This document shows, piece after piece, positions 55,465-58,169 of a DNA stretch of 64,000 bases; positions within the stretch are counted from its first letter, which is position 1; each line of letters starts with the position of its first letter. The DNA comes from Escherichia phage VB-EcoM-WM: the sequence record PQ014731.1. The stretch is one strand, 5' to 3'. A program made the translations under genes and the position numbers. The notes under the pieces are model-generated. The model saw nothing but the letters and a program-made list of their open reading frames with translations, did not search any database and had not been told where the DNA came from.

Positions 55465-55749
55465 ATGGTAGTAGAACCGACAAAAACATTTACCTCCATG
55501 ACTATTCCTGTTATTATGCAGGTAGAGTGCGTTCAGGTGTCTCAAGTGTGGCCAGGTACTAAAATTCCAACAGGGCCTGATTTCTTTCAGGTCGGCAAAG
55601 TGTATAATGTCTGGAAGGCACCGGATTGTTACCCTTTCATTAAAGATGACCGTGGAATGTTATGGTATCTGGGAAATGATTTGACACTGCATCTTGGAAA
55701 TGCTATTATTGCAGTGTTCCGGCTCAACAAGAAGGAGGCAGATCAATGA
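55465..55749 (+). CDS. small early protein (paralog family)
   Basis: Track ORF 55375 overlaps polymerase exon 2; ATG 55465 follows RBS gagaggag; shares GKVY...DD.G..WY motif with neighbours. Confidence 0.4.
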   Translation: MVVEPTKTFTSMTIPVIMQVECVQVSQVWPGTKIPTGPDFFQVGKVYNVWKAPDCYPFIKDDRGMLWYLGNDLTLHLGNAIIAVFRLNKKEADQ

Positions 55750-55973
55750 CAACTTTGGTTAAAGCGACGTTTGTAGAAGAAAAGATGACAGACCTGTCAT
55801 TCTTTGAAGAAGGTAAGGTCTACAAGGTTTACTACGATAAGGATCGCAGGAACAATATGATCGAAGACGAGGAAGGTATTTCCTGGTATATCTCTCACCT
55901 GGCAAATGGTGAGTATCATATCTATGGAACCACCCTGCTTGCCAAGTTTGTAGCTGTTGAAGAGGATCTATGA
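55746..55973 (+). CDS. small early protein (paralog family)
   Basis: 75 aa; EGKVYKVYYDKDRRNNMIEDEEGISWY; ATGA overlap. Confidence 0.45.
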   Translation: MTTLVKATFVEEKMTDLSFFEEGKVYKVYYDKDRRNNMIEDEEGISWYISHLANGEYHIYGTTLLAKFVAVEEDL

Positions 55974-56164
55974 AAGTAAAGTATCTGGCTGAAGGTATGA
56001 GTAGGTATTTTACCCTTGGAGAAGAGTATTGGCCCTTCACGGAAAATGGAGATGTATACGTGAAGGATGACCAAGGTGTGCCGTGGTTTCTGCACCATAA
56101 TGGGTTGGGGTATTCCATCTACTGCGGTGCAGTGAACAACACAACCCTTGCAGAGTTTGTCTAG
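55970..56164 (+). CDS. small early protein (paralog family)
   Basis: 64 aa; GEEYWPFTENGDVYVKDDQGVPWF; ATGA overlap. Confidence 0.45.
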   Translation: MKVKYLAEGMSRYFTLGEEYWPFTENGDVYVKDDQGVPWFLHHNGLGYSIYCGAVNNTTLAEFV

Positions 56165-56174
56165 AGGAGGCAGA

Positions 56175-56546
56175 ATGTTAGTAAAAGGTACCCACACAAT
56201 CAAGCAACGTATTGAAGTTGAGATTGATGATTGTGAGCTGAAGCATATCTTACGGTCGTGCTCCAACGTTTTGCTCCTCAGTATTCTCCAGGAGCGAGCG
56301 GAGAACGAGTTCTTAAATGCACTGGCAGGCCGTCCTGGGGACTTCTGTGTGCGTAAACGTGAAGATCGTAAGTCATGGTTGTGGGAAATCGATGCCGACT
56401 GGGATTACCACAAAAATGAGGGCATAGATGAGCCTATTCGTGAATTGACAGATAAAGAGATTCAGATGTACAATGAAGTTTGTCATTGGGCAAAACGCCA
56501 ACAGATTTACCTCGACCCTGTGTGGATGATTGAAAATAGTCATTGA
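56175..56546 (+). CDS. hypothetical protein
   Basis: ATG 56175 after RBS gaggagg (track start 56148 is an alternative codon). Confidence 0.4.
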   Translation: MLVKGTHTIKQRIEVEIDDCELKHILRSCSNVLLLSILQERAENEFLNALAGRPGDFCVRKREDRKSWLWEIDADWDYHKNEGIDEPIRELTDKEIQMYNEVCHWAKRQQIYLDPVWMIENSH

Positions 56547-56571
56547 CAAGAAGTAAGATTAGGTATAAGAT
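56543..56571 (+). promoter_or_regulatory. sigma70-like promoter
   Basis: TTGACA, 17 nt, TAAGAT upstream of the gene at 56623. Confidence 0.4.
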
Positions 56572-56622
56572 TCTTCACACAAACAGAGCGTTGATTTTTA
56601 AATAACTAAGGAGACTGCCAAG

Positions 56623-56877
56623 ATGAAAATTACTTTGAAGCCAGAATGTGTTGCAAATGACCGGGCTTTTAAGGATTGCACAGTCGGTGCAATTTATGAA
56701 GCAGAGTTTTGTGAGAACCCTCTGGTAAAAGCCCTTCTGGAAGAAGGGGCCCCTTTATCACAAGAAGAGATTGATGAGCTGGAAAACTCAGCCCAGTGCC
56801 TTACCTTTAAAGATGATGAAGGAGACTCTGTCTGGTGCACTGTTAATGAAGTAGTTTTTGTAAAACCTGAACATTAA
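56623..56877 (+). CDS. small early protein (tandem paralog A)
   Basis: 84 aa; RBS aaggagac; motifs DRAFKDCT and KDDEGDSVWCT shared with the next gene. Confidence 0.45.
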   Translation: MKITLKPECVANDRAFKDCTVGAIYEAEFCENPLVKALLEEGAPLSQEEIDELENSAQCLTFKDDEGDSVWCTVNEVVFVKPEH

Positions 56878-56880
56878 TAC

Positions 56881-56909
56881 TTGACAACAGTGATGGGGCC
56901 TAATATAAT
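56881..56909 (+). promoter_or_regulatory. sigma70 consensus promoter
   Basis: TTGACA, 17 nt, TATAAT; the track ORF start at 56881 is actually the -35 element. Confidence 0.6.
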
Positions 56910-56940
56910 GGCCCTATCAAAACGAAAGGGGACCACAGCA

Positions 56941-57213
56941 ATGACCAAACAATATCAACGAATTAAAGCCAAGGTTAAGCCAGACTATCTGGAAAAGGAC
57001 TCTGCTTTTCGGGACTGCACAGCTGACAAAGTTTACACAGGGGCCGTCCTGTTGAACGATGAATTTGAAGTAGATGTTCTGGGTAAAGAGGCTACTATCA
57101 AGGACGACCAGGGAGATTATGTTTGCTGCACCACACGCGAGCTAGAAATCTTAGAATACTTCGGTGAAATCTTCACCTCTCTTGATGATTACTTAGATGA
57201 TGAGGCAGAGTGA
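56941..57213 (+). CDS. small early protein (tandem paralog B)
   Basis: ATG 56941 after RBS aaagggg, downstream of promoter 56881; motifs DSAFRDCT and KDDQGDYVCCT. Confidence 0.45.
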   Translation: MTKQYQRIKAKVKPDYLEKDSAFRDCTADKVYTGAVLLNDEFEVDVLGKEATIKDDQGDYVCCTTRELEILEYFGEIFTSLDDYLDDEAE

Positions 57214-57614
57214 TGAAAAACATTTGGGATATCAATATCTTTGAAGCCTCTGAGCTTGACGGTGCCGATGGGGTTATTATAGTTTCTGATGGAAAGGTAA
57301 CATTGACCTCTGGACTGACCTATGAGGACACTACCTACGCATTGGGCGATCTTGCCTTGTTGAAATCAACAGGTGGCTCTCTGGAAGAACGTCTGCAAGG
57401 ATTTGCCTTTAAAGAAGGCACAAACACCACACTGATGTGCACTACACGCACTGTTCAGTTGGGCAACGGGGTATATATGGTCATTGCAGTGTGCCCCAAA
57501 TTCAGCAACATTAATAAAGATGATGCTGACGCTGTCAACGACGTGGTTGTCCTATTCGTGGGTGACGCTATGGCAGATCTGATGAATGCAGGAGAAGCAG
57601 CAAATGAAGACTGA
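57213..57614 (+). CDS. hypothetical protein
   Basis: ATG 57213 overlapping upstream stop. Confidence 0.4.
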   Translation: MKNIWDINIFEASELDGADGVIIVSDGKVTLTSGLTYEDTTYALGDLALLKSTGGSLEERLQGFAFKEGTNTTLMCTTRTVQLGNGVYMVIAVCPKFSNINKDDADAVNDVVVLFVGDAMADLMNAGEAANED

Positions 57615-57906
57615 AAACATTACACCAGAAGGATTCCTGAAAGTATACCGTGAACTATTGTATACCACAGAGGATAGTGTTCTAGAGTACCCAGAATATC
57701 TTTTGCTGTATAAGTATCTGCAGGAAGCTGGTGAAAATCTTCCAGTTAGCGCAGAAGGTGGTCCAAACTGGGTCTACAGCGCATGGAGAAAGGTTGACAT
57801 TCTCCCAGATCCAGGAAAAGATATGGTAGTTTGGCAGCTTATCAACAACATCGGGATTCCAATCTTCGACGAAGCTGTTAAAATCTATTTTGAACTTGAT
57901 GATTAA
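57604..57906 (+). CDS. hypothetical protein
   Basis: ATG 57604 after RBS ggagaag (track start 57586 is an alternative codon). Confidence 0.35.
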   Translation: MKTENITPEGFLKVYRELLYTTEDSVLEYPEYLLLYKYLQEAGENLPVSAEGGPNWVYSAWRKVDILPDPGKDMVVWQLINNIGIPIFDEAVKIYFELDD

Positions 57907-57923
57907 TATCAGGAGACCTTAAG

Positions 57924-58169
57924 ATGACTGAAGTAGTTGCTCGCGCAGGACAGAAAGTACGTTGTGTTGAAGTGGGTTTTGGTGGCAAAGGGTGTCAAAA
58001 CTTGACTCAAGGTAAGGAATACACTGTTGTTTCTGGCGGTGGTGACAAAAGTATTGTGTTCGATGACCATATTCTGGATGTTGAAAACTTTGAAATAATT
58101 GACGATGATGGTGATCCGATCACCTGCCTGCTGGACGGGAATTGGGGAACTTTTGAAGTGATTGGCTAA
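57924..58169 (+). CDS. small early protein (paralog family)
   Basis: 81 aa; QGKEYTVVSGGGDKSIVFDD; RBS caggagacc. Confidence 0.4.
   Translation: MTEVVARAGQKVRCVEVGFGGKGCQNLTQGKEYTVVSGGGDKSIVFDDHILDVENFEIIDDDGDPITCLLDGNWGTFEVIG

Follow-up and report, generated by a model that had tools for sequence, protein, structure and literature searches.

The 64,000-nucleotide (nt) stretch of Escherichia phage VB-EcoM-WM that we analysed (accession PQ014731.1, the window from here on) carries a set of small plus-strand genes between positions 55465 and 58169. An original prediction, made from the sequence alone, had read these genes, together with two more starting at 63263 and 63495, as a single expanded family of small early proteins with five plus two members. 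The window is ~98% identical to Escherichia phage FV3, its closest relative, and belongs to Vequintavirus, the genus of rV5-like myoviruses; 118 phage records match the region at 92–98% identity. The small genes sit in a replication block transcribed rightward, downstream of a helicase-primase and a DNA polymerase and upstream of a conserved 423-amino acid (aa) protein (58618–59889), endonuclease VII and a macro-domain protein. All the predicted open reading frames (ORFs) were found at their coordinates, and they match genes annotated as hypothetical proteins in FV3 and rV5. They do not, however, make up one family. Instead, we found two unrelated families, one of four genes (group A) and one of two (group B), plus two unrelated singletons.

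The eight candidates, named here by their first position, were compared all against all by Smith-Waterman alignment with 1000 shuffles per pair, and just two significant clusters emerged. Group A comprises 55465 (55465–55749, 94 aa, orthologue of FV3_00205), 55746 (55746–55973, 75 aa, orthologue of FV3_00204) and 55970 (55970–56164, 64 aa, orthologue of FV3_00203), which lie in tandem and are translationally coupled through ATGA stop/start overlaps at 55746 and 55970. Alignment z scores were 10.6 for 55465–55746, 8.2 for 55746–55970 and 5.1 for 55465–55970. Group B comprises 56623 (56623–56877, 84 aa, FV3_00201, orthologue of rV5 ORF220) and 56941 (56941–57213, 90 aa, FV3_00200), which had been put forward as tandem paralogues and indeed are: their score of 98, against 27 ± 5 for shuffled sequences, was reached by none of 1000 shuffles (z = 14.1, with 32–38% identity over 77 aa). 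Relative to its paralogue, 56623 contains the inserted segment NPLVKALLEEGAPLSQEEIDELENSAQ. The remaining pairs among the eight candidates gave z < 2.6, including all A–B pairs and all pairs with 57924, 63263 or 63495, so that the comparison supports each group on its own but links neither A to B nor either of them to 63263 and 63495.

Profile-based comparisons gave the same partition. In hhalign, groups A and B matched each other with E values of 0.01–0.05, no better than those of unrelated neighbour-gene controls, and hidden Markov models (HMMs) of one group did not retrieve the other among the 1524 ORF segments of the genome, in which group B has two members. Every protein has its own PHROG of unknown function, cross-matches stay inside each group (1.5e-3 in A, ~1e-5 in B), and a Pfam scan returned no family above noise for the small proteins. 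ORFs 63263 and 63495 (orthologues FV3_00186 and FV3_00185) match neither group nor one another (z < 1.7, no HMM hit, hhalign values like those of controls). As for the motif GK.Y.V...DD.G..WY, said to be shared by at least five ORFs of the span and the two at 63.3 kb, a relaxed form occurs in exactly the three group A ORFs 55465, 55746 and 55970, with none expected from shuffles, but the other ORFs share only its [DE][DE]xG turn. This turn, the sole element common to all eight candidates, is present in 28 of the 119 plus-strand ORFs (18 expected by chance). In 63263 the spacing from 'GK.Y' to 'DEDG' is ~7 residues, compared to 17–19 in the group A module, and does not fit.

An exhaustive HMMER search of 1.84 billion representative proteins with the group A profile yielded nine proteins in total. 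Six of them fall within the three gene families of group A, some being more divergent; the remaining three are longer, with 2, 4 and 5 tandem stretches matching the profile, and one of these longer proteins ends in a C-terminal DUF3310, a T7 gp1.7-like nucleotide kinase domain. Relatives of two of these three tandem-module proteins are present in more than 90 Enterococcus phage genomes, sometimes at two or three places per genome; the third, P0050, with five repeats, had no match in the phage collection. P0051, a repeat protein of Enterococcus phages, matches the PHROGs of both 55746 and 57924. The shared signature is G.h.C...FFT.G.EY.V...h.DD.G..W, in the neighbourhood of phrog_3523, phrog_12623, phrog_3249 and phrog_4927. 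Family A belongs to a widespread phage module that occurs as single small proteins, as two to five tandem copies or fused to a kinase domain. At the profile level, the Enterococcus phage proteins (P0049-type arrays, P0051-type DUF3310 fusions; phrog_3523) carry the same sequence module as group A and 57924. In those proteins the module is repeated 2–5 times per polypeptide or fused to the kinase and the hosts are Gram-positive, unlike that of the window phage, where the module is spread over four separate genes.

The fourth of these genes, 57924 (57924–58169, 81 aa, orthologue of FV3_00197), lies ~1.8 kb downstream of the group A trio, and its link to group A was undetectable in the pairwise comparison of the eight candidates. 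We then searched the window, as 687 stop-to-stop segments of at least 40 aa, with an HMM built from only 11 repeat units of the outside proteins. The top four segments were 55746 (4e-6), 55970 (1e-5), 57924 (3.4e-4) and 55465 (4.4e-4), followed by a next match at 0.05; group B genes appeared at E ~4, and 63263 and 63495 gave no hit. The same four lead across the FV3-type genome (1524 segments), where 57924 has an E value of 7.5e-4. Because 57924 had no part in choosing the repeat proteins, this match counts as an independent detection. In hhalign against the repeat profile 57924 reached E = 1.1e-4, four unrelated neighbour genes giving at least 0.018, and 55970 matched with 92% probability. 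The N-terminal half of 57924 (GQKVRCVEV...LTQGKEYTVV...FDD) fits the module, and the C-terminal half bears an insertion. These similarities make 57924 a probable fourth member of family A. Outside the window, FV3_00127 (L014 4922–5209) showed a weak match to the outside-repeat HMM (E = 0.01 among 1524 ORF segments) and, judged by this match, is a possible fifth, very divergent copy elsewhere in the genome. In slur12 (L007 5492–5809) and in P0045, the 55465 orthologue has 33 bp of the barrel module duplicated in tandem and in frame (KAPDCHPFIKE-KAPNCYPFIKDD); therefore, some lineages tolerate an 11-residue insertion near the β2–β3 region.

Structure prediction placed the two families differently. 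Group A was modelled with AlphaFold2 on 55746, without templates, from an alignment of 23 rows that combined group A sequences with 57924 and the outside repeats. The resulting model (predicted local distance difference test, pLDDT, 83; predicted template modelling score, pTM, 0.69) has six strands and a long β1–β2 loop with a short helix, and this predicted six-stranded small barrel with its prominent β1–β2 loop is superimposable on the Protein Data Bank (PDB) entry 9AXB. In view of their resemblance to 55746 and the repeat module, in sequence and in profiles, 55465, in which the module would follow an N-terminal extension of ~35 aa, 55970 and 57924 may be expected to adopt the same fold. The group B model, made on 56941 (pLDDT 86), is a predicted SH3-like five-stranded barrel followed by an acidic C-terminal helix (…SLDDYLDDEAE), and its structural matches were to generic SH3-like barrels only (SH3, KOW, FeoA, Mib/Herc2 and MazF-type), with scores at the level of fold resemblance. 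Compared to those barrels, group B has the extra acidic C-terminal helix and lacks a sequence signal and a proline-peptide- or RNA-binding signature. On this model, family B would go back to a generic SH3-like barrel gene that was duplicated in tandem long ago.

The entry matched by group A is Gp54 of phage Bas11 (JohannLBurckhardt; PDB 9AXB and 9ERV), a 66-aa six-stranded barrel with a prominent β1–β2 loop (Zhang et al., Nature 2024, PMC11578894); the Gp54 sequence that we took from the Bas11 genome is that of 9AXB. Gp54 is non-essential in the laboratory and has no assigned role, although it binds the antitoxin domain of CapRel(SJ46) directly, with a Kd of 800 nM, and activates CapRel (PMC11578894). 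Binding involves partial unfolding and β-sheet augmentation, and escape mutations affect G24, W43 and a site just upstream of the gene, probably its promoter (PMC11578894). The authors speculate that Gp54 might inhibit another defence system (PMC11578894). Since the close Gp54 homologues of Bas5, Bas8, Bas10 and SECphi27 fail to activate CapRel (PMC11578894), CapRel activation does not define the fold family. Like Gp54, the group A proteins are standalone polypeptides of ~65–75 aa encoded among small phage genes of unknown function and their acidity ranges from mild to strong; like some of the window genes, Gp54 apparently has a promoter of its own. In contrast, Gp54 comes from a T1-like siphovirus and the window from an rV5-like myovirus, which has four paralogues per genome. 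In the best, though insignificant, local alignment, G24 and W43 of Gp54 fall on the conserved Gly and Trp of the module.

A Foldseek search of BFVD returned the same fold in many uncharacterised proteins of 60–80 aa from T1-like and rV5-related enterobacterial phages (template modelling score 0.6–0.74, E 2e-3 to 0.25). Gp54 matches phrog_7421 only, and the window proteins match other PHROGs. In the Bas11 genome, the best matches of the module HMMs were weak (E 0.014–0.1) and concerned bas11_0041, 0048, 0061, 0071 and 0079, all of them genuine small genes with no spurious ORF; Gp54 itself was not matched. Together with the T1-like matches in BFVD, these weak matches hint that Drexlerviridae also carry several such barrels. 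What is new here is that group A is identified, from predicted structure, with the barrel of Gp54 from Bas11; on this model the fold would have a sequence-definable and widely distributed phage family.

The two models also bear on the view behind the original prediction, namely that all six to eight small ORFs derive from one ancestral barrel gene and that divergence has carried A and B, perhaps also 63263 and 63495, past sequence recognition. The groups adjoin on the same strand, both models begin with β1, a loop with a short helix and β2, followed by a hairpin with a DDxG turn, and the best A–B alignments, insignificant as they are, centre on KDDxG. Yet the strand counts differ, six in A against five plus a helix in B, A–B pairs stay at z < 2.5, the A–B hhalign values equal that of the unrelated control 57213, and the HMM of either group misses the other throughout the genome. 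The DDxG turn is common in the proteome of the window, and 63263, with its deviating motif spacing, and 63495 are left without any support. A single ancestor is, in our judgement, unlikely. According to the models both groups would lie in SH3-like fold space with only A having the Gp54 architecture, and it cannot be shown that A and B share an ancestor.

We also considered that the similarities might be due to chance and the small ORFs not be real genes, given that the ORFs are short, fall in no Pfam family and carry the PHROG annotation 'unknown function' throughout. All eight candidates have intact copies in the eight related loci with good assemblies, save for 63495 in rV5, which is split in an old record. 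All other frameshifted copies in the loci examined come from phage Alma, whose record also has a fragmented helicase; similar truncated entries occur in the databases. Pairwise ratios of nonsynonymous to synonymous substitution rates (dN/dS, Nei-Gojobori) were 0.02–0.21 for the eight candidates (0.02 for 55465 and 0.09 for 56623), with dS of 0.28–0.56, similar to those of neighbouring genes; for the six genes of the two families dS was 0.34–0.56. The intactness of the six family genes at these ratios, the failure of 1000 shuffles to reach the observed scores, the confident fold predictions and the match to an experimental structure leave the chance explanation with next to no probability, and we regard it as already refuted. 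The same ratios contradict the description of these genes as diversifying, because within the genus they indicate purifying selection.

Database searches showed that the families are largely confined to the genus. In tblastn against 50,697 phage records, 55746 and 56941 were found only in 115 Vequintavirus records, 56941 matching two places in each of those genomes, and 57924 gave one distant, weak match beyond the genus, in a Klebsiella phage with a 48-kb genome. In contrast, the flanking 58618 gene is present in 296 records from many genera. The restriction of the six genes to the genus, next to a widely shared flanking gene, fits accessory genes. When 55746, 56623 and 57924 were used in word-indexed searches, most of the proteins retrieved were near-identical orthologues (mainly 81–99% identity), the rest being truncated or frameshifted entries, so that no diversity was gained, and scans of IMG/VR gave two loci only. 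Gene 56623 has a G4C4 tract at 56741–56748, at which many of its database versions are frameshifted (variants of 46–76 aa). Phase variation or decay at this tract was considered and rejected: Alma is broken elsewhere too, and the other eight loci checked are intact. In Alma, the only full genome with a 56623 variant that we checked, the helicase is broken and 55465 and 57924 are frameshifted as well, and for this reason the 56623 variants are most likely homopolymer sequencing errors.

Each gene of the tandem pair was said to have its own near-perfect σ70 promoter. A consensus promoter does precede 56941 (56881–56909, plus strand, TTGACA-17-TATAAT, 12 of 12 positions), but for the one before 56623 (56543–56571, plus strand, TTGACA-17-TAAGAT, annotated as P220 in the rV5 GenBank record) 'near-perfect' is generous, as it matches at 10 of 12. 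Both are conserved: the two hexamer pairs are kept in the window and in nine related loci from eight other phages, save for single-base variants (TTGATA in the 56623 promoter of slur12, TACAAT in the 56941 promoter of three loci). A possible internal promoter with an extended TG (55681–55709, plus strand, TTGACA-17-TATTAT, 11 of 12) lies inside 55465, ~35 nt before the start of 55746, where it overlaps coding sequence and conservation is uninformative. Between 54000 and 64000 we counted 32 σ70-like matches in total, compared to 17.8 ± 5.4 in shuffles, and all 11 promoter-like matches of at least 10/12 are on the plus, coding strand. These counts point to a dense array of host-polymerase promoters through the 54–64 kb block. 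We found no transcript data for rV5-like phages in the literature, and the 'early' timing ascribed to the small genes is suggested by the promoter consensus only.

The promoter of 56941 also bears on its start codon. As the 12/12 promoter puts the transcription start at ~56916, the ATG at 56941, which is preceded by AAAGGGGA, is favoured. FV3 starts FV3_00200 at an upstream ATG that lies within the promoter, and the N-terminus read from 56941 aligns with that of 56623. On sequence grounds, the 56941 start is mis-called in the FV3 RefSeq record. The −10 hexamer of this promoter is held in the 9-nt loop of an inverted repeat of 9–10 bp (56891–56919, plus strand), with arms TGATGGGGCC and GGCCCTATCA. 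The dyad occurs once in the window, and in rV5 and FFH2 it shows a compensatory double change (AGGACC...GGTCCT). Folded as RNA it has −18 kcal/mol (z −3.5) and no U-tract. It could be an operator-like element overlapping the −10 box or a 3′ RNA hairpin of the 56623 message.

What might these proteins do? No catalytic motif is recognisable in either family, five of the six family proteins have isoelectric points of 4.2–4.8 (the exception being 55465), and the conserved positions (Gly, Tyr/Trp and the DDxG hairpin) look structural by their place in the module. The literature that we searched held no transcriptomic or functional data on these genes. With moderate confidence, we favour the view that the locus encodes two unrelated families of small, acidic, non-enzymatic β-barrels in a largely genus-specific islet of the replication block, and that these are protein-binding, accessory factors at the phage-host interface. 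Since the models are of small, mostly acidic barrels without a catalytic motif, and the group A domain is reused as a module in arrays and fusions elsewhere, the six proteins would work in a stoichiometric manner, each binding host or phage proteins, and paralogues might present different surfaces to different partners. Each group B copy would be driven by its own σ70 promoter, the second −10 box being embedded in the conserved dyad. The most likely role would be an accessory one in modulating host factors or defences. A host-directed role is best supported because Gp54 augments the β-sheet of its partner, is dispensable and sits at the interface between phage and defence. By analogy with Gp54, the six proteins are candidate triggers of CapRel-type sensors, and an anti-defence or host-takeover role, as originally proposed, is plausible, the lead in this direction being the group A match to Gp54 only. 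The Pfam and PHROG scans gave no homology to a characterised anti-defence inhibitor, a search aimed at anti-defence families not having been made.

Several points weigh against this view. The comparison of Gp54 with the module in hhalign was not significant (E = 0.32), and a profile search of the PDB with the module missed 9AXB, its top matches being CAP/CRP proteins at E > 0.1, that is, noise. With no link at the sequence level, common ancestry with Gp54 has predicted structure as its only basis. As the modelling alignment included 57924 and the outside repeats, the group A model describes the family and not 55746 alone, and the C-terminal half of 57924 aligns imperfectly. What can be carried over from Gp54 is a fold and a liability, that of recognition by CapRel; a natural function cannot. 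Restriction-modification systems act unusually strongly on Vequintavirinae according to the BASEL data (PMC8594841), which makes an effective anti-restriction role unlikely. Finally, the location among replication genes and the kinase fusion elsewhere are also compatible with a function in the metabolism of DNA or nucleotides.

This last point leads to the main functional rival, in which the barrels are not host-directed but are accessory factors of replication or nucleotide metabolism (SH3-, KOW- or OB-like binders of nucleic acids or of the replisome), co-expressed with the polymerase, helicase-primase and single-stranded-DNA-binding protein (SSB)-like genes. The small genes lie between the DNA polymerase and 58618, whose C-terminal part matches a stretch annotated as SSB in one Klebsiella phage record, with endonuclease VII next, and the module occurs in Enterococcus phages as a fusion with a gp1.7-like nucleotide kinase domain. 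Moreover, 56941 ends in an acidic, aromatic tail, and the SSBs of T7 and T4 use such tails for replisome contacts. Purifying selection would suit this role as well. On the other hand, the low isoelectric points of five of the six proteins speak against direct nucleic-acid binding, sister genera with the same replication genes lack the small genes at the level of sequence, and the structural homologue Gp54 is non-essential. Weighing both sides, we consider a replication role improbable and retain accessory binders at the phage-host interface as the preferred reading. A bolder extension of it, which we regard as unlikely, is that the Gp54 barrel, supposedly 'very rare', is in truth common as a modular adaptor domain (singletons, tandem arrays and kinase fusions) among phages, whether their hosts are Gram-negative or Gram-positive. 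Each of the four rV5 paralogues would then bind a different immune or housekeeping protein of the host by β-sheet augmentation, and the set would serve as a toolbox of inhibitors of defences or host factors and, at the same time, as molecular patterns for whose recognition CapRel-like sensors evolved.

Several features of the surrounding region were also recorded. The DNA polymerase (50827–55415) is split by an HNH homing endonuclease gene at 54360–54866, and is a single uninterrupted ORF of 925 aa in slur12 and ECP32. ORF 55059 (55059–55415, 118 aa) was considered as a further DDxG member and rejected, as it is the C-terminal polymerase piece split off by the HNH insertion. The upstream polymerase ORF is longer in the window (1132 aa) than in FV3 (809 aa), and this difference suggests that its 5′ end has gained another in-frame insertion or a fusion; in FFH2, a separate HNH gene occupies the position of this 5′ extension. 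Downstream of the small genes, the 423-aa 58618 protein (phrog_4477) has a Gln/Gly-rich linker and a C-terminal ...DFCDDIPF... motif that recalls the acidic tails of SSBs. The match of its C-terminal part in Klebsiella phage KP2025 falls in a region with SSB annotation, and by these sequence features the 423-aa protein is probably a phage SSB. The macro-domain protein (61642–62199), 3.5 kb downstream, is so annotated in slur12 and ECP32 (phrog_335 'phosphatase'; RB49 Tk.4-like) and is a more conventional candidate than the small barrels for countering host defences based on ADP-ribosylation. Lastly, 16 'Campylobacter phage' records (MG0656xx; 15 with Campylobacter jejuni as host) are >90% identical to the region (~92% among those listed), and seem to be phage genomes that were mislabelled or stem from contamination.

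Among characterised proteins, only Gp54 of Bas11 has this six-stranded barrel, and it is known solely as a trigger of CapRel. Our prediction places its fold in four constrained copies in each sequenced Vequintavirus, and a sequence-definable module that also occurs in arrays and kinase fusions would turn an orphan structure into a family. Should the six proteins be ordinary accessory binders, annotation would still be corrected in three respects: the small genes form two families, the 56941 start in the FV3 RefSeq record changes, and the ORFs at 63.3 kb are unrelated to them. In practical terms, the phages of the BASEL collection offer a tractable set for gene deletion, and the small barrels are concrete candidates for triggers or inhibitors of bacterial defence systems.

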